From: Acidobacteriota bacterium
Lineage (GTDB): Bacteria > Acidobacteriota > UBA890 > WLXD01
Direction: 5' to 3'
NCBI GenBank assembly: GCA_963666215.2
Contig: CAXWPL010000004.1
Coordinates: 384,001-448,000, forward strand
DNA: 64,000 nucleotides
Shown piece by piece: positions 29,268 through 34,844 of this stretch. A program made the translations under genes and the position numbers. The notes under the pieces were generated by a model that saw only the letters and a list, made by a program, of their open reading frames with translations, ran no database searches and had not been told where the DNA came from. Position 1 is the stretch's first letter; each line of letters opens with the position of its first letter.

Positions 29268-29711
29268 CTAGCGCGGCAGGACGGTCCGAACGGGAAAGCG
29301 CCGGAAGCCACGATCGAAGGTCACGAGCTCGAGGTCGGTGGCCATGGCGTGCGCCGCGAGATAGGCGTCTGTCCAAAGTCCGGGAGTTACCGGCGCGGAC
29401 CCGCGCGCGCGCACGAGGTTCTTGAGGATGTCGTCGAGTTCGGGCGGCTCGGTGAAGAACTCGACTGGCCGTTGCTCGGCCAGCACCGAGTAGTCGTCCC
29501 AAGCCTCTGCGGCCGTCCGAATGGACCGACCCATCACATGGCGATTGCACAGAAGCCGCAGGAACCCCATCTGCGTGAGTCGGCAAAAACCGACGACAGC
29601 CTTGTCGGGCACGACCTCCTGCTCCCACCACGCGACGGCCCGATTGTGATGTGGATGCGGCTCGAGAACGGTGGCGAGCCAGACGTTGACGTCAGCTAGG
29701 ATCCGCCGCAT
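29268..29711 (-). CDS. VapC PIN-domain toxin
   Basis: LADVNVWLA, GFLRLL, WTDAYLAA, LVTFDRGF. Confidence 0.9.
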   Translation of the reverse strand: MRRILADVNVWLATVLEPHPHHNRAVAWWEQEVVPDKAVVGFCRLTQMGFLRLLCNRHVMGRSIRTAAEAWDDYSVLAEQRPVEFFTEPPELDDILKNLVRARGSAPVTPGLWTDAYLAAHAMATDLELVTFDRGFRRFPVRTVLPR

Positions 29712-30006
29712 GTGCTGCCGCTTGTGTTTCTTCCTTTTCGAGCAGCTCATGGACCCGCGCCGAAGTCAGATCACGAAGCGCACGACCGCCGGGGCCGCGC
29801 ACGATCGGAAAGAAGCAGCCGCCGCCCAGGTCCTGGCGCTCGTCGACGCCATACGCGGGCGCGCGCTCCGCCACCGTCATCAAGCCGCCGTCGAGGGCCG
29901 CGCGGACCGCCTCTGTGACGTAGTCCTTGAGCTTCATACCCCGCAGGGCCGCCTCGGACTTCGCTCGCCGAAGAATTTCTTCCGGAATGTCGATCGTCGT
30001 GCGCAT
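29692..30006 (-). CDS. VapB-like RHH antitoxin
   Basis: MRTTIDIPEEILRRAKSEAALRG; overlaps the toxin gene. Confidence 0.85.
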   Translation of the reverse strand: MRTTIDIPEEILRRAKSEAALRGMKLKDYVTEAVRAALDGGLMTVAERAPAYGVDERQDLGGGCFFPIVRGPGGRALRDLTSARVHELLEKEETQAAAHAADPS

Positions 30007-30014
30007 GGACACAT

Positions 30015-30039
30015 TTTGATGCGTTTGATGCTTTGATGC
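30015..30039. promoter_or_regulatory. Three direct repeats TTTGATGC, probable antitoxin operator
   Basis: tttgatgc g tttgatgc tttgatgc immediately upstream of the antitoxin ATG. Confidence 0.65.
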
Positions 30040-30163
30040 AACGACGAATCGTGGGGCCTCGGAGTATGGAGCGCCATCGTCGGGCGTCGTAGCCCGGCGT
30101 GTCGCATCTCGGAGTTCGCCATGGTCGCGCGCTCCCTGCCTCAACCAACTTCGCCCTTTCGCC

Positions 30164-32425
30164 CTATAGAATGCTGGGCTCCGTCGCGTACGACAGGCGC
30201 GCGATGGGTCGCAACTGATCGCGGTCGTGTTCAGAAGCGAGCGCCCGTTTTACAGCCTCCACGAGACCGCCCTCGCGCTGCTCCACTAGCTGCCTGGCTC
30301 GACGGATGTCTTCGTCGAAGGGTCGGTCGGTGAGCGCCGTTTCGATCTGCGCTTCGCGAATCGCCACGTAGGCCGCGCGCGTCCCGGGAGCGAGCTGCGC
30401 GATGCCGGCATCGCGGCACTCAGCCACCGCGCGTTCGAACAAGCGGGCCACAACCTTCGACTGGGCACGAAGACGGAGAACGCGATCGAGTGCAAGCTCG
30501 GCTGCGGTACCCGGCCGGTCTTCGATGAACGGGAACAAGGGCTGAGCGAGCGTGGCGAGGTTGTCGATGAACTTCTCTTTGGCAGCGGCCGCAGGCGTGG
30601 GGCGGCCCTTGGACTCACACTCGCGCACCCACGCGTCCCATGCGTCGGCTGCCCACGCTTCGAGATCCGACGGGCCCACGGCACCGACCAGGGTCCGCCA
30701 ATCAAGAGCCTGGGCGGCAACCATCAACTCGATCGCGATCACAGCCTGGACGTTCTCGAGCACGCTGCGGGCCTTGCGTCAGGCGATCGTTGCCATGGCA
30801 ACGTGGTCCTCGGTGTTGGCCGACGTCGGGATCGAATCGACCGACGCCGGATGCGCAAGGACCTTGTTCTCGGAAACCAGCCCGGCGGCGCAGTACTGCG
30901 CCAGCATGTAGCCCGAGTTCACACCAGCCTCGGGAATCAGATTTCCCGGCAGCCCGCGGTTGTGATTGCGATCGAGTAGGAGCTGCGTCCGGCGCTCCGA
31001 GATGTTGGCAAGCTCGGCGAGCGCGATCGCCAGGTAGTCGGCCGCCAACCCGACCGGCTGGCCGTGGAAATTGCCGGCCGAGAACGACTCCTTCTTGTGG
31101 CCTGCGTAGGCAACCTCGCCGCCACCGTCACGCGTCGGCTGCGTGGGCCAGTTGGCGTCGAATTCGGTGTCCCACTTCCTGCCGTCGCCGGTGACCACTC
31201 CGAGGCCCTCAAAGAAGAAGATTGGGTTGTCGATACCCGCTCGGATCTCCTGGTCGATCACCATGCGCGCGTACGAGATGGTGTCGCGGCTGGCGCCGTG
31301 GACCGCCGGGGCGCAACGGATCGAGTAGGGGTCTTGCACGGCGCCCGCTCGTTCCAGCAGCTTGCTGCCGTCGAGCACGGCGCGAACGTTCGCCGCGCAG
31401 TCGATTTGACCGCGCTGCCGTCGCAGTCGATGCACCTTCTCGTCGAAGGCACGGCCACAGCCGCACATCGCCTCGGCGGTCATGGCCAACGCGATGTCCG
31501 CCGCGCTGGCGAGCGTTTCCGCGTCGTGCACCGCGAGTGCAAGCAACGCCGCCGAGACCGTCGCACCGTTTGTCAGTGCGAGGCCTTCCTTGTAGCTGAG
31601 CGTTAGTAGCTTCGGGCTTGTTTGCGTCCGCCGAATCGGGTCGTCCTCGGCGGCGCGTTCCTTGGCCGCCTCCCACGCCAGGCTCAGGGCCCGCTGGAGA
31701 CACTCGGCGGAAAGCACGACGCGCTCGGGCAACTGGCGTTCGTCGATATCGGGACTGGATTCATCGAGGTGAGTCTCGAAGTCGGGGCCGGCAGCGATGG
31801 TTTCCGGCGTGGTGGCCAAGTAGAAGAATCCCGATCCAAGCAGCACTCCGAACAGATGGACGAGCGGCGCCAGGTCGCCACTCGAGCCCACCGAGCCGCG
31901 CGTGGGAACCAGCGGAACGACGCCGGCGTTGATCATCCGGCAGACGGTGTCGACAAGCTCCCACGAGGCCGCCGAGTGGCCCATCAGGAAGGTACTGAGG
32001 CGCAGCAACATCGTTGCCCGCACGACCTCCGCCGAGAAGTAGTTGCTCGGGGCCCTGAAGTCGGAAGTCTGTCCCACTCCAACGGCGTGACTGAGAAGGA
32101 TCTTGCGCTGCAGCTCCTCGAGCTCGTCGGGATCGATCGGGATGTTCTTGAACTCGCCGAACCCGGTGGTGACCCCGTAGTCGGTAGCCGGCGGCCGCTC
32201 TGCCCCGGCTTCATAATCGGATTTGCTCTTCTTGTAGGCCTCGACGCGCTTGACGAGCTCGGCGCGGACCGCTTCTACGCGCTCGCGCGCGGCAGGTGAG
32301 ATGCGGATCCGGCGCCCGCCTCGAGCTACCTCGACGAGCCGGTCGAGGTTGAGGTTCTCGCCCGTCAGCTCGAGCGAGTCATCCTTGGAGTGAGCGTGAT
32401 CGGGATTCGCCGGACCGTCGTTCAC
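30164..32425 (-). CDS. hutH: Histidine ammonia-lyase-like MIO enzyme, enlarged (about 753 codons), in-frame TGA at 30779-30781
   Basis: YGVTTGFG, LLSHAVG, GSVGSSGDLAPL, KEGLALTNG, QDPYSIRC, GNFHGQP, TSANTEDHVAM; downstream RKARSVLENV..ELMVAAQALD is in the same frame. Confidence 0.85.
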
Positions 32426-33864
32426 AGCCCGCTCTCGATGCGCCCCAGCAGTGCACCGAGGCGGCTCACGAGCTCGGCCCGCGGCGCCTCGAACTGGCCT
32501 GGGCGCTCTTTGATCCAGTCGGCGCGGTCCTTGAGCTCTTCCGCGCTCCTACGGCCGACGTCCATGTCCTTGATCTGGACCTGTCCCGACTCCTTCTCGC
32601 GCGTCCCGTAAATCACGGCAACCGGGATGTCGCAACGGTCGGCGTACTTGAGCTGCTTGCCGATACCCCGCTCGGTGCCGAGGTAGAGCTCGGTTCGGAT
32701 GCCGGCGCGGCGCAGCTCGTACGTCATCTCGAGGTAGTCGCTCGTGAGGCTCTCGTCCATGTTGATGACAAGCACCTGCGCGGTGGACCACTTGAGCTTC
32801 ACGGCGCCAATGTCGACCAGCGCGGCCAACAACCGATCGACGCCCATAGAGGCACCGGTTGCCGGAATCGCTTCGCCGGTGAAGCGCTGCACAAGCTCGT
32901 CGTAGCGGCCGCCGCCGAATACCGATCCGAAGCGTGGGGCGTCACGCAGGTACGCTTCGAAGACCGGGCCTGTGTAGTAGGCCAGGCCGCGAGCAATACT
33001 CAGATCGACAACCACGCGATCGTTGCCATACCCGAGAGCGGCCAGGTGGCCGGAGATGCGGTCGATGACGTCGATCTCGGCGCCGGCCTGAGCCAGGCCG
33101 GAAAACAGATCGCGTAGCTGGGCGATGACCTCGCCGCGCTCATCGGAACGAATCGCCAGAAAGAGCTCGATACGATCGACCTGTTCGCTCGTGAGGCCGA
33201 GCCCGGGGATCTGATCGCCCGATTCGTCTTTGTAGCCGGTCGTGAGCTCCAGGCGGACCTTGGCCGGCCCGATTTTCTCGAGCTTGTCGAGCACACGGAA
33301 AACGTCGGTGGACCTGTCGCGCGAGATTCCGGCGAAGTCGAGCAGCAGGTTGAGCACGCTCCGGCTCGAGAAACGAACGACGTAGTTGTCGACATCGAGC
33401 GCCGATAGCGTGTCGCACATGCCGGCGATGATCTCGGTGTCGGCAACCTCCGACGGAGCCCCCACCGAGTCAAGATCGAACTGGGTGAACTCGCGGTAGC
33501 GACCGGGGCCCGGCTTGTCGGCGCGCCAGACCGGCGAGACTTGGTAGCGGCGGAACGGCCGAGGCAAATCGACGTACTGGGAAACCACCCGCGCCAACGG
33601 CACCGTGAGGTCGAACCGCAATCCGAGCCCGCGCTCCTCTGGCTCGCGAGGATTGTCGACATGGAAGATCGACTGCTGCGCCTCATCGCCGCCGGTCCCC
33701 GAGAGCACATCGAGAAACTCGAACGCCGGCGTCTGTAACGGCACGAATCCGTAGAGCTCGTACACGCCACGAACCTTGGAGAGCATCCACTGCCGAGCCT
33801 GCATGTGATCGGGCAGTTGATCGCGAAGCCCGCGCGACAAGCCGGGAGTAACGAGATCTGACAT
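32422..33864 (-). CDS. hisS: Histidine--tRNA ligase, divergent KPGPGR type
   Basis: RGLRD, LRFDLTVPLAR, WRADKPGPGRYREFTQFDLD, RGLAYYTG, GGGRYDEL, GASMGVDRL, KQLKYADR. Confidence 0.96.
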   Translation of the reverse strand: MSDLVTPGLSRGLRDQLPDHMQARQWMLSKVRGVYELYGFVPLQTPAFEFLDVLSGTGGDEAQQSIFHVDNPREPEERGLGLRFDLTVPLARVVSQYVDLPRPFRRYQVSPVWRADKPGPGRYREFTQFDLDSVGAPSEVADTEIIAGMCDTLSALDVDNYVVRFSSRSVLNLLLDFAGISRDRSTDVFRVLDKLEKIGPAKVRLELTTGYKDESGDQIPGLGLTSEQVDRIELFLAIRSDERGEVIAQLRDLFSGLAQAGAEIDVIDRISGHLAALGYGNDRVVVDLSIARGLAYYTGPVFEAYLRDAPRFGSVFGGGRYDELVQRFTGEAIPATGASMGVDRLLAALVDIGAVKLKWSTAQVLVINMDESLTSDYLEMTYELRRAGIRTELYLGTERGIGKQLKYADRCDIPVAVIYGTREKESGQVQIKDMDVGRRSAEELKDRADWIKERPGQFEAPRAELVSRLGALLGRIESGL

Positions 33865-34054
33865 AGGTGGTTTGCCTGACTGAATGGCGGTCGTCAGGAC
33901 CGCGGCGCTCCGTGCGGCAGTGCAGTACCGCGCAGGACTGGAGCCGCTCGCGTCGGGGTACCGAGAGCGACGCGGCGGCGGTTGAAGCTCGAACAGAGTC
34001 AAGAATCGGTCACGCGTGCCCCGAGCATGAGCGGGACGCGGACCGAAGTTGGAG

Positions 34055-34127
34055 TACCGGCGACGGGACTTGAACCCATGACCTCCTGATCCACAATCAG
34101 GCGCTCTACCAGCTGAGCTACGCCGGC
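34055..34127 (-). tRNA. tRNA-His (GUG) with G1:U72 and A73
   Basis: GCCGGCG TA GCTC AGCTGGTA GAGC G CCTGA TT GTG GA TCAGG AGGTC ATGGG TTCAAGT CCCGT CGCCGGT A; full cloverleaf, anticodon at 34092-34094. Confidence 0.95.
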
Positions 34128-34250
34128 CCCAGGGCCAAACTACGGGCGCTAGTGTAGCGGTAAAACAAAGTCTCCGACGCGCCAATCACCCGGCGGATTG
34201 GCAGCGAGCATCGAGGCCTCGGGAAGTTGAACCACGTACAATGCGCAGCC

Positions 34251-34844
34251 ATGAAAATCATCCCGAACGCTCGTGCGTGCGCCCTCGTGGCGCTTCTGGT
34301 TTCGATCGGCTGCCAGCCGCAGCAGCAACCCGAGCCCGCTGCCGCGGCGGACCCGGTGACCACGGTGATCTACTTGATGCGTCACGCCGAGACGCTATTG
34401 CCGCCACCCGAGGACGCGCCGCGTGACCCGCCGCTCAACATCATGGGACAAGAACGCGCCGACGCGTTGGCGCGACTGCTGTCGAGCGAGCCCATCACGC
34501 AGATCTTCAGCACCGAGTTGCGGCGCACGCAGGAAACTGCGGCACCGCTCGCCGCCCGGCTCGGGATCGCGGTAGCCCCGTACGATCCGTCCGACCTGGA
34601 AACGTTCGCCGGGGTGCTCAAGGCAGCATCAGGCCGCGTTGTGGTATCCGGGCATAGCAACACCACGCCGGTGCTCGTCGGATTTCTCGGGGGAGAGCCC
34701 GGAGAGCCGATCGACGAGAGTGTGGAGTACGACCGGCTGTACACGGTGATCGTCCGCAACGGCGAGGTGGTGACGACGCTGCTTCAGCGCTACGGAGATC
34801 CGCTACCCGACAACTGGCAGGAGCTGGCTTCGACGCGACGTTGA
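34251..34844 (+). CDS. Histidine phosphatase (SixA/phosphoglycerate mutase-like) lipoprotein
   Basis: Lipobox-like SIGC; MRHAE, RTQETA, GHSNT. Confidence 0.85.
   Translation: MKIIPNARACALVALLVSIGCQPQQQPEPAAAADPVTTVIYLMRHAETLLPPPEDAPRDPPLNIMGQERADALARLLSSEPITQIFSTELRRTQETAAPLAARLGIAVAPYDPSDLETFAGVLKAASGRVVVSGHSNTTPVLVGFLGGEPGEPIDESVEYDRLYTVIVRNGEVVTTLLQRYGDPLPDNWQELASTRR

Follow-up and report, generated by a model that had tools for sequence, protein, structure and literature searches.

A tRNA-His, hisS and histidine ammonia-lyase cassette in Acidobacteriota and its probable lateral acquisition by one genome

Introduction

The question raised by this locus is why a gene for histidine charging should be joined, stop codon to start codon, to a gene for histidine deamination. 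The window (i.e., the whole 64,000-nt stretch of DNA that was analysed) lies on contig C4 of an Acidobacteriota genome, here called G000; about 8% of this genome is unassembled, and every "only copy" count given below covers the assembled part. In the window, three genes follow one another on one strand, in the order tRNA-His(GTG), hisS (histidyl-tRNA synthetase, HisRS) and a HutH-type histidine ammonia-lyase (HAL). The sequence-only reading of this DNA had rightly picked out the hisS–lyase pair, but it overlooked the tRNA-His(GTG) gene at 34054-34127. It is likely, in our judgement, that these genes form a cassette that was acquired laterally, would be transcribed together, encodes a HAL acting on the free-histidine pool, and in this genome now ends in a lyase pseudogene.

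Organization of the cassette

The features of the locus, all on the minus strand, are as follows:

34054..34127, minus strand: tRNA-His(GTG) gene (ARAGORN; Rfam tRNA, 71.6 bits; sequence and cloverleaf)
33865..34053, minus strand: spacer of 189 nt between tRNA-His and hisS
32422..33864, minus strand: hisS, from ATG at 33864 to TGA at 32424-32422, 480 aa; Pfam PF13393 (2.6e-47) and PF03129
32422..32425, minus strand: GTGA overlap, in which the lyase start GTG (32425-32423) overlaps the hisS stop TGA
30782..32425, minus strand: N-terminal part of the lyase, codons 1-548; Pfam PF00221 (6.7e-137), translation and alignment
32087-32092, minus strand: SH motif of the lyase, in LLSHAVG
31877-31885, minus strand: MIO triad SSG of the lyase, in GSVGSSGDL, residues 177-185 (S181-S182-G183)
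30803-30814, minus strand: TEDH of the lyase, in SANTEDH
30779..30781, minus strand: in-frame TGA, codon 549 of 754
30164..30778, minus strand: C-terminal part of the lyase in the same frame, codons 550-753 plus TAG
30761-30763, minus strand: possible restart GTG, with AAGG 9 nt upstream

HisRS consists of the Pfam domains tRNA-synt_His and HGTP_anticodon, and it is encoded separately from the lyase, that is, in two ORFs with overlapping stop and start rather than in one polypeptide. The overlap GTGA at 32422-32425, which had been reported earlier, is borne out by the sequence. hisS begins 189 nt downstream of tRNA-His on the same strand, and no promoter-like site, terminator-like site or Rfam family was found in the spacer between them (33865..34053). 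In related metagenome loci (from the 80 best of at least 577 lyase matches in contigs), tRNA-His and hisS are separated by a median of 41 nt, and in 29 of 45 loci by no more than 60 nt; these short distances argue for co-transcription.

Conservation of the cassette

A search for tRNA-His–hisS–HAL synteny found the adjacency well beyond G000. Among the 30 best HisRS loci of the phylum sample that were examined for an adjoining HAL, 12 have one. Nine genomes of the phylum sample (G000 included) have a HisRS that shares 48% or more identity with that of the window; in all nine the lyase lies directly downstream of hisS, and in eight of these nine loci tRNA-His lies directly upstream of hisS; three more genomes (G035, G036 and G140) carry the two protein genes in the reverse order, HAL→hisS. 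The linkage is kept down to a HisRS identity of 48% and down to a lyase identity of about 37% (tblastn). In the metagenome sample, again the 80 best of at least 577 lyase matches, hisS ends at most 400 nt upstream on the same strand in 62 of the 64 loci with at least 600 nt of upstream sequence, tRNA-His is present in 44 of the 49 loci with at least 1800 nt, and in 52 of 66 loci the hisS stop forms part of an ATGA, GTGA or TTGA. Among the species-representative genomes, ATGA or GTGA is found at this position in 6 of 9. Since both adjacency and overlap are conserved elsewhere, the arrangement is not unique to this genome, so that the refutation which the sequence-only reading had set for itself on this point fails; judged from these sequences, several families of the phylum and many metagenome contigs have the same arrangement. 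No description of a hisS–hutH operon was found in the open-access literature.

Type of the tRNA-His and HisRS

By sequence signature, the tRNA-His and HisRS of the cassette are of the G-1-independent kind. The ΔG-1 group of tRNA-His is defined, as given in PMC3064791, by A73, G1-U72 and U20a, and in the accounts of PMC4338351 and PMC9976931 the G-1-less tRNA-His with a divergent HisRS occurs, among bacteria, in one α-proteobacterial clade only. The tRNA-His of the window has G1·U72 and the discriminator A73, without encoded CCA. Two points of its sequence do not fit the ΔG-1 definition: there is a G at -1, which stands opposite A73, and the D-loop, AGCTGGTA, has 8 nt instead of the 9 nt with U20a. 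Most other copies of the cassette resemble the α-proteobacterial type in these two points as well, with no encoded G-1 and a 9-nt D-loop. That is to say, all 45 metagenome tRNA-His genes (from the 80 best of at least 577 lyase matches) have G1/T72; at N73, 41 of them carry A and 4 carry G; at -1, T is found in 34 and G in 8; and the D-loop is 9 nt long in 36, as it is in the other representative genomes. In addition, T stands at -1 in all nine module tRNA genes read from the eight other representative genomes, including an unlinked copy of G187 on another contig.

The synthetase gives the same picture. The motif-2 loop of the window HisRS is WRADKPGPGRYREF, which lacks the Gln of canonical HisRS in the loop alignment; this Gln is absent from 51 of 51 readable loops, with 3 further loops of the 54 unparsed. 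The corresponding loop of Ruegeria HisRS is WRNEKPGPGRYRQF, and Cereibacter and Sinorhizobium have the same loop type. In the HisRS tree (30 rows, midpoint root), nine module HisRS and the three α-proteobacterial HisRS of Ruegeria, Cereibacter and Sinorhizobium form one clade (UFboot 100, SH-aLRT 100), within which the HisRS of G000 is sister to the f32 group (95/86). Among the structures of the PDB, the module HisRS is matched far better by human cytoplasmic and other non-E. coli-type HisRS than by those of E. coli, S. aureus and T. thermophilus.

The cassette shares with the α-proteobacterial ΔG-1 type A73, G1-U72, a motif-2 loop KPGPGR without Gln, and the fully supported HisRS clade (100/100). 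It differs in that tRNA gene, hisS and lyase gene are physically linked, that the window copy has the G at -1 and the 8-nt D-loop, that its mode of charging is predicted from sequence, and that the nearest named homologs of the G000 system are Thermoanaerobaculia/Acidobacteriota MAGs, i.e., members of a non-proteobacterial phylum. In the Ruegeria and Cereibacter records, representing Rhodobacterales, a hisS of the same clade is likewise followed, in the same orientation and at tight spacing, by a gene of histidine metabolism; the partner there is biosynthetic rather than catabolic, being annotated as the regulatory subunit of ATP phosphoribosyltransferase and followed by hisG in the Ruegeria record, and no tRNA-His gene was seen in the listed 2.5-kb flank of hisS in either. 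No ΔG-1-type tRNA-His outside α-proteobacteria was found described in the open-access literature. The ΔG-1 sequence signature is now found in another phylum, sister to the α-proteobacterial enzymes and packaged with its tRNA. Transfer between α-proteobacteria and the cassette group may have run in either direction, the tree being midpoint-rooted and having three α-proteobacterial rows among its 30.

Probable replacement of the native histidine set

In the assembled part of G000, the tRNA-His at 34054-34127 is the only tRNA-His and hisS encodes the sole histidyl-tRNA synthetase (a single PF13393 match in the genome); judged from this sequence, the two remain its only histidine-charging pair. 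The relatives of G000 within its family are equipped differently, with an E. coli-type HisRS that has ERPQKGR, its motif-2 loop being FRYERPQKGRYRQF, and an ordinary HAL. In the relatives G003, G007, G001 and G021, a tRNA-His with g-1, G1-C72 and C73 heads a His-Arg-Lys-Leu tRNA cluster. The cluster of G000 reads Arg-Lys-Leu; its promoter-like hexamers are kept, and about 76 nt of non-tRNA sequence occupy the His slot. Similarly, the purA-HAL-HEAT-orf12 slot of G003 has its counterpart in G000 without the HAL, and in the lyase tree G000 groups with the module-type lyases and apart from the HAL found in its family.

Because the relatives carry a canonical tRNA-His, an E. coli-type HisRS and an ordinary HAL, and because these slots are empty in G000, the cassette was probably acquired laterally by the G000 lineage. 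The donor would have been Thermoanaerobaculia-like, and the incoming cassette would have replaced the native tRNA-His, hisS and hutH. With the slots of the canonical tRNA, the synthetase and the HAL all emptied, G000 would offer a concrete case of the swapping of a whole identity set by gene transfer.

Identity and possible role of the lyase

The Ser-Ser-Gly MIO motif, the SH motif and TEDH, as listed above, were all found in the translation and alignment of the lyase, as had been claimed. LLSHAVG and SANTEDH are conserved across the lyase subfamily, and we take the SH and xEDH motifs to be HAL-type substrate residues (the Ser-His switch and the Glu of xEDH) that are tied to histidine specificity. 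At the MIO triad, 14 of 70 lyase relatives have SSG and 53 have ASG. The AlphaFold model of the lyase (pTM 0.83) finds its best Foldseek matches in the HALs 6v6h, 1gk2, 1b8f and 7tqr, with target-normalised TM-scores of 0.75-0.87. The lyase is the only PF00221 gene in the assembled genome and hence its sole HAL. Earlier it had been noted that the window contains no hutU or hutI, and this holds: a hutU with three urocanase domains adjoins hutI (422.9 bits against a 298-bit cutoff) on contig C2, where the only above-cutoff urocanase and hutI matches of G000 lie. In 10 of 10 cassette genomes tested, urocanase is on a different contig from the cassette.

With its full HAL motifs, its position as the only PF00221 gene, and hutU-hutI elsewhere, the lyase when intact looks like the organism's HutH by sequence, rather than like an enzyme of the tRNA-dependent pathway that had been proposed. 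Compared with HutH of Pseudomonas putida (PDB 1B8F/1GKM), it shares the Lyase_aromatic domain, the X-Ser-Gly MIO triad, the closest fold, the motifs SH, xEDH, YGVTTGFG, LALTNG, QDxYSxRC and NFHG, and the state of being the sole HAL of a genome with hutU-hutI. It has SSG where HutH has ASG, and T in place of Q before EDH; its loops and C-terminal region contain about 240 additional residues; its gene follows tRNA-His and hisS and is not part of a hut operon; and in G000 this gene is interrupted by TGA.

As for expression, all three genes may be transcribed from the tRNA promoter, and translation of the lyase may be coupled to that of hisS through the ATGA/GTGA overlap, in which case HAL would be made in fixed proportion to HisRS. 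It is proposed that HAL would then serve as a constitutive overflow valve, or as a urocanate generator, for the free-histidine pool, and that its product would feed the hutU-hutI pair encoded elsewhere.

Another account is that the linkage has nothing to do with charging: hutH came to lie beside hisS by chance in an ancestor and was kept there by tight spacing. The ordinary HAL motifs of a sole HAL, with hutU-hutI elsewhere, agree with such hitch-hiking; moreover, the same-type hisS of α-proteobacteria adjoins the annotated ATP phosphoribosyltransferase regulatory subunit (then hisG in Ruegeria), so that the neighbour of hisS varies. However, the linkage persists down to 48% HisRS and about 37% lyase identity, in two gene orders and with a conserved overlap, and plants have independently joined the two protein families. 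Hitch-hiking is therefore given a minority chance, though a sizeable one, and a HAL expressed together with HisRS remains the preferred reading.

Possible relation to the plant HAL-like–HisRS fusion

The eukaryotic HisRS with a fused lyase-like domain to which the sequence-only reading had pointed in plants does exist according to PMC7564348. As described there, plant cytosolic HisRS, for example Arabidopsis At3g02760, has an N-terminal HAL-like domain of about 400 residues without the MIO triad, which is 15-20% identical to HAL and presumed non-catalytic, and whose role that source, the one paper found on this domain, calls unknown. Since the plant fusion is real, the hisS–lyase operon is, by analogy, a possible split counterpart of it. 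The two are alike in joining a HAL-family module to HisRS, and the domain order of the plant protein is that of HAL→hisS in G035, G036 and G140. They are unlike in that one is a fusion and the other an operon, and in that the plant domain, as portrayed in PMC7564348, is without the MIO triad and presumed non-catalytic; its kinship to the bacterial lyases is putative.

On this basis, HisRS might bind the lyase, which would then have a role at the synthetase (histidine sensing or structural) beyond catabolism. Besides the fusion documented in PMC7564348, the strongly conserved adjacency, the stop and start that overlap in 52 of the 66 metagenome loci (from the 80 best of at least 577 matches), the occurrence of both gene orders, one of them matching the plant domain order, and the much closer PDB match of the module HisRS to human cytoplasmic HisRS and others not of the E. 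coli type are consistent with such binding. Against it, PF00221 was found in 0 of 6 long HisRS relatives, which is weak evidence on bacterial HAL–HisRS fusions, and the bacterial lyase keeps all the catalytic motifs, whereas the plant domain, on the description in PMC7564348, is without the MIO triad and only 15-20% identical to HAL. Binding appears unlikely. More doubtful still is the widest version, in which HisRS and the HAL-type lyase would be one physical and functional unit, the operon would be the split counterpart and possibly the evolutionary source of the plant domain, and the cassette, as a transferable "histidine identity set", could overwrite the canonical G-1/C73 system of a host. 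Whichever way this falls out, the conserved hisS–HAL pair provides a bacterial system for probing the function of the plant HAL-like domain, and the catabolic HutH-type enzyme is the reading retained here.

Interruption of the lyase gene by TGA

The lyase had been described as an enlarged protein of about 750 aa. If the TGA is read through, its insertions are real, and comparison with subfamily members of 560-617 aa places them behind the MIO loop, ahead of the NFHG motif and within the C-terminal region; the single ORF is not real, for a TGA at codon 549 had gone unmentioned. Under table 11 the gene falls into ORFs of 548 aa (32425-30779) and 199 aa (30763-30164). The Pfam Lyase_aromatic match ends at profile position 418 (residue 548) and picks up at 420 directly after the TGA; the C-terminal part taken alone covers profile positions 420-448 with its residues 1-29 and reaches 22.6 bits, below the 27.3-bit cutoff. 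In the AlphaFold model, residue 549 lies in a three-residue turn between two helices, immediately before the core helix 551-581 (pLDDT about 96), which belongs to the C-terminal part together with the C-terminal helices. Truncation at the TGA thus removes the core helix and the C-terminal quarter of the lyase.

Contigs of the runs X2, X6 and X9, which come from three studies, contain the TGA and show 0 differences over 30100-34200, although one of these runs may be the source sample. In the codon-549 column, 59 of 70 relatives have Ala, 6 have Gly, 1 has Asn and 1 has Cys, with 3 unread, and 69 of the 70 are uninterrupted. A sister strain (the X11 contig and P0003) has TGC (Cys) at codon 549; it also carries an AG inserted behind 31941 and, internally, a stretch that is deleted or garbled, and the internal lesion of P0003 differs from that of the X11 contig; these lesions rest on one contig of depth 4, where error is possible, and on P0003, which may not be independent. 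Because the TGA recurs in three studies, the sister strain with TGC bears a frameshift and no interruption is seen in 69 of 70 relatives, the lyase of G000 is most likely a recent pseudogene, probably non-functional or decaying.

It has to be considered whether the TGA is decoded, as selenocysteine (Sec) or by read-through, so that the cell makes a full-length lyase of 753 aa. G000 has Sec machinery (tRNA-SeC, selB and selA) and apparently uses Sec for a candidate FdhA-like gene with the motif NQARTUHSSTVPG; the Cys codon of a near-identical strain at the same place is the usual Sec/Cys pattern; the UGA precedes C, a weak stop context; and the catalytic motifs and near-invariant columns are largely intact. 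On the other hand, 65 of 70 relatives have Ala or Gly in this column, which is therefore not a redox or catalytic site, and the strain with TGC bears other lesions. Nor does the RNA fit: in the 40-60 nt after the UGA, 24-64% of windows from the same gene are at least as stable, the fold (z = -0.27 against shuffles) falls short of a SECIS hairpin, and no Rfam SECIS family matches after the UGA. Decoding is thus very unlikely.

Equally improbable is an active lyase assembled from pieces of 548 aa and 199 aa, with a stop at UGA549 and a restart at GTG 30763: the break in a three-residue turn of the model and the GTG 16 nt downstream of the TGA, with AAGG 9 nt before it, make a two-piece enzyme conceivable, and the downstream frame is open for 199 codons with its conserved motifs kept, yet no other subfamily member is split (69 of 70 being uninterrupted), the restart would lose five residues at the start of the core helix, and an open downstream frame is equally expected after a recent nonsense mutation. 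Returning to the pseudogene, only 6 of 140 near-invariant columns are changed in the lyase, a number that some intact relatives reach or exceed, so that any decay is very recent, or the gene is still used.

Organisation of the Cassette

Judged by its sequence, the locus is a conserved cassette in which tRNA-His(GTG), hisS and a HutH-type lyase (HAL) gene follow one another on the minus strand, and it belongs to a G-1-independent identity type. In this genome (G000) the cassette was probably acquired laterally, and the lyase is interrupted in this species. The features are as follows.

34251-34844, plus strand: histidine-phosphatase-superfamily gene with a signal-peptide-like N-terminus, divergent from tRNA-His; upstream bound of the cassette
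34054-34127, minus strand: tRNA-His(GTG), Rfam 71.6 bits
ATG 33864 to TGA 32424-32422, minus strand: hisS, 480 aa, Pfam tRNA-synt_His and HGTP_anticodon
32425, minus strand: GTG start of the lyase, overlapping the hisS stop as GTGA
30781-30779, minus strand: TGA inside the lyase frame, codon 549, read from the sequence
29692-30144, minus strand: weak ParD/RHH-like ORF (E 6.6e-4, under the Pfam cutoff), directly 3' of the lyase stop
29268-29750, minus strand: PIN-domain ORF (E 3.9e-13), downstream of the lyase

The sequence-only reading had described an enlarged lyase coupled to hisS, and the tRNA-His gene was absent from it. The coupling through the GTGA overlap stands, as do the motifs it claimed (S181-S182-G183 in GSVGSSGDL, LLSHAVG and SANTEDH, all found), while the single frame of about 750 codons does not, the TGA at codon 549 having been read through unremarked. 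The Pfam Lyase_aromatic profile is continuous across this TGA, residue 548 aligning with position 418 and the first residue past the stop with position 420, so that this is one gene, cut within its core domain. The lyase is the sole PF00221 gene of the genome, hisS is the sole PF13393 gene, and the tRNA-His is the only one. The observation that no hut genes are near was also upheld, that is, none lies within the window; urocanase and hutI, the sole above-cutoff matches of the genome, adjoin each other on contig C2. A search of 30100-34400 against Rfam at permissive thresholds found the tRNA alone, the promoter scan returned no sites, and none of the six terminator-like sites found lies between cassette genes.

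Conservation of the Gene Order

The adjacency of hisS and the lyase is strongly conserved. In the phylum sample of 201 genomes (the tallies count two unpublished genomes, G166 and G047, which underlie none of the specific claims), HAL is present in 175, and a HisRS matching that of the window at E ≤ 1e-40 in 47. Among the best 30 HisRS loci, the lyase lies directly 3' of hisS in all nine with at least 48% HisRS identity (G000, G090, G102, G077, G062, G187, G134, G186 and G027, from five GTDB families), and tRNA-His directly 5' of hisS in eight of these nine. Three others (G035, G036 and G140) have the reversed order HAL→hisS, and in the remaining 18 HAL was not found in the 1.5-kb flanks. For the 17 further HisRS matches, the contig differs from the HAL contig wherever both are listed, two being uncheckable. 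The hisS-lyase junction is ATGA in G102, G062, G186 and G027 and GTGA in G000 and G134; G090, G077 and G187 have a gap of about 45-120 nt and no overlap. A single-protein search of genome contigs gave three related loci, one of them a Thermoanaerobaculia MAG with hisS→lyase. One locus, G062:C101 (L047/L121), has upstream of hisS a tandem pair of A73/U72-type tRNA-His genes in place of a single one.

The same order was found in a metagenome sample, independent of and wider than the genome sample, consisting of the best 80 of at least 577 lyase matches. Where 600 nt or more are available upstream (64 loci), a same-strand hisS ends no more than 400 nt before the lyase in 62; where 1800 nt or more are available (49 loci), tRNA-His is present in 44. 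The hisS stop context in 66 loci is ATGA (35), GTGA (14), TTGA (3) or other (14). Between tRNA and hisS the median distance is 41 nt, and it is 60 nt or less in 29 of 45 loci. With such short spacers and overlaps, most loci could not accommodate a promoter or terminator between the genes; co-transcription and translational coupling, both of which we infer, would be the natural reading.

Identity Type of tRNA-His and HisRS

The rare α-proteobacterial tRNA-His that lacks G-1 (ΔG-1 type) is defined by A73, G1-U72 and U20a, and the Caulobacter HisRS reads the anticodon, U72 and A73 instead of G-1, according to the relevant passages of Yuan et al. (PMC3064791). The cassette tRNAs have G1·U72 and A73, and in the other representative genomes they also have T at -1, a D-loop of 9 nt and a CCA end in the gene. 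The window tRNA-His has G1·U72 and A73, yet its position -1 is G, its D-loop has 8 nt and CCA is not encoded; because of this G and D-loop, it agrees with the ΔG-1 definition only in part. In 45 metagenome tRNA-His genes, G1/T72 is constant, and 41 have A73 against 4 with G73. At position -1, T (34 genes) is the commonest base, ahead of G (8), C (2) and A (1). The identity set within the group may thus be non-uniform, with G73 in 4/45 and, as in the window, G at -1 in 8/45.

The synthetase, like the tRNA, is of an uncommon type. The motif-2 loop of the window HisRS is WRADKPGPGRYREF, and WRNEKPGPGR, a loop of the same type, occurs in the HisRS of Ruegeria, Cereibacter and Sinorhizobium, which are the best matches in a plasmid/chromid collection (41-44% identity). 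Of 54 metagenome loops, three were unparsed; among the 51 readable ones, 50 are of the form KPD/G..GR, one is DNPYEKRGR, and none has the motif-2 Gln. Family and order relatives have the E. coli-like motif-2 FRYERPQKGRYRQF. In a maximum-likelihood tree of 30 rows, rooted at the midpoint and with three α-proteobacterial rows only, the nine cassette HisRS and these three form one clade (ultrafast bootstrap 100, SH-aLRT 100), within which the window HisRS is sister to one group, f32 (95/86). Rao and Jackman (PMC4338351), in the part that treats this point, give the α-proteobacterial clade as the sole bacterial exception known to 2015, and the corresponding part of a 2023 review (PMC9976931) names no other. 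A literature search on G-1 of tRNAHis in Acidobacteria turned up papers on other unusual features of tRNAs only.

In the records of the Rhodobacterales Ruegeria and Cereibacter (L115, L116), the gene immediately 3' of this clade's hisS is annotated as the ATP phosphoribosyltransferase regulatory subunit, and Ruegeria has hisG after it. One synthetase type is thus linked to the synthesis of histidine in those records and to its degradation in the cassette.

Probable Lateral Acquisition and Native Slots

A HisRS like that of the window was found, at E ≤ 1e-20, in none of ten same-family and none of 15 same-order genomes. In the relatives G003, G007, G001 and G021, a canonical tRNA-His (g at -1, G1-C72, C73) heads a His-Arg or His-Arg-Lys-Leu tRNA cluster. 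This genome, at C4:643508-643823 (region 643250-643823, outside the window), has the cluster Arg(ccg)-Lys(ctt)-Leu(tag); the promoter-like TTGACG…TACGAT is retained, and about 76 nt of non-tRNA sequence occupy the His slot. In G003, HAL has purA on one side and a HEAT-repeat gene on the other; at C2:431950-434768 of G000, also outside the window, about 630 bp lie between purA and the orf12 homolog with no HAL, so the native hutH slot is empty.

The lyase of the window has 36% identity with the G003 HAL and groups in a quick tree (SH-aLRT 100) with cassette and MAG lyases whose source names are mostly Thermoanaerobaculia/Acidobacteriota. The HisRS of the window is 66-71% identical to proteins under the same source names, and the Thermoanaerobaculia MAG contig carries hisS (67%) and then the lyase (54%). 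From these comparisons we infer that the cassette came in laterally and that the native tRNA-His, hisS and hutH were then lost, in a genome that is 91.7% complete, so that a native copy could be missed. Together, the ParD/RHH-like and PIN ORFs resemble a toxin-antitoxin pair of the vapBC type, as might be expected if the region was gained by transfer.

Putative Function of the Lyase

The HAL-type motifs YGVTTGFG, SH, xSG, LALTNG, QDxYSxRC, NFHG and xEDH are kept across the subfamily. The best sequence matches among solved structures are HALs (7tqr, 1.6e-79; 1gkm, 1.6e-78), as are the best fold matches (6v6h, 1gk2, 1b8f and 7tqr; model pLDDT 75.7, pTM 0.83). Urocanase is on a different contig in all ten cassette or HAL-hisS genomes tested, and a phylum scan gave one lyase gene in each of the eight other tRNA-His→hisS→lyase genomes, that of G134 as two matched stretches. 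Motifs, fold, the separate urocanase and the single lyase gene make HutH the simplest candidate function, sited in a housekeeping operon and not in a hut operon. We propose that a HAL made in fixed ratio to HisRS would skim only excess histidine, since HAL and HisRS differ in affinity, and would also provide urocanate for the separately encoded hutU-hutI.

Compared with the 560-617-aa cassette lyases, the extra length of the window lyase consists of three loop/C-terminal insertions and a tail; the C-terminal insertion (residues about 585-670) is predicted as extra helices (model m98347d8127fb). Query-normalised TM-scores of the lyase model are higher for eukaryotic PALs (0.60-0.64) than for HALs (0.51-0.57). 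Eukaryotic PALs carry an inserted multi-helix domain.

The proposal that the operon could be a split counterpart of a plant fusion is part of an interpretation that is supported overall only in part. An N-terminal domain of about 400 residues is described by Saga et al. 2020 (PMC7564348), in the section concerned, as found in plant cytosolic HisRS alone, with weak HAL homology, without the Ala-Ser-Gly triad and with no known role; this was the sole paper found for a 'HAL-like domain' with HisRS. What is fused in plants is joined in bacteria, as the same two families, in a conserved operon with both gene orders, and this is the classic gene-fusion/gene-neighbourhood pattern of functionally linked proteins. 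A link between operon and plant fusion may be hypothesised, although we consider it unlikely. Candidate bacterial HAL-HisRS fusions were rejected: those of G011, G059, G143, G164 and G144 are long open frames with no window-type HisRS adjoining HAL, and the 1009-aa open frame of G035 is hisS, in a frame different from HAL. A search for long HisRS gave six proteins, none with a lyase domain; one (P0244) has a 384-aa N-terminal extension without Pfam match, which looks like a mis-called start.

The TGA at Codon 549

Contigs from three studies (runs X2, X6 and X9) show no differences over 30100-34200, TGA included. X2 and X6 each span the TGA in a single record; as one or the other may be the source sample, the independent studies number at least two. 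In a fourth run (X11), 13 positions differ, one of them being 30779 T>G on the plus strand (TGA to TGC, Cys); the X11 sequence also has AG inserted behind 31941 and lacks 31293-31520. All of this is on one contig of depth 4.1, and differences on a single contig of depth under 5 may be errors. The protein P0003 has the substitutions of the X11 strain, Cys at the TGA column and Met164 as first residue; it is garbled around residues 336-383, an internal lesion different from that of the X11 contig. Among 70 near-full-length relatives the lyase is uninterrupted in 69. At the TGA column, 59 of the 70 carry Ala and 6 carry Gly; Asn and Cys occur once each, and three are unread.

We therefore regard the lyase of this genome as quite likely a recent pseudogene. 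Decay is opposed by the near-invariant columns, of which only 6/140 are changed, a number no greater than in some intact relatives. It is very unlikely that UGA549 is decoded, as selenocysteine for example: tRNA-SeC, selB and selA are present in the genome, as is an FdhA-like gene bearing the classic …ARTUH… site, but the stretch past the lyase UGA shows no unusual degree of structure and the column is non-catalytic. Residue 549 lies in a predicted three-residue turn just before core helix 551-581, and a 548-aa product would lack this helix and the C-terminal quarter; an enzyme working in two pieces has an equally slim chance. An alternative code with TGA as sense is rejected on the evidence of this locus, where hisS itself stops at TGA at the point where its 474-489-aa homologs end.

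Outside the window, a molybdopterin oxidoreductase gene (C4, about 69000-71000, minus strand) contains a TGA within its frame, in the motif …NQARTUHSSTVPG…, and a -18.7 kcal/mol hairpin comes after it. From its sequence it is likely an FdhA-type selenoprotein and a customer for tRNA-Sec, selA and selB. Two further molybdopterin-domain matches (C1:77537-78766 and C3:422477-423706) have equal scores and both lie in 743-aa open frames; they may be a true duplication or one region assembled twice.
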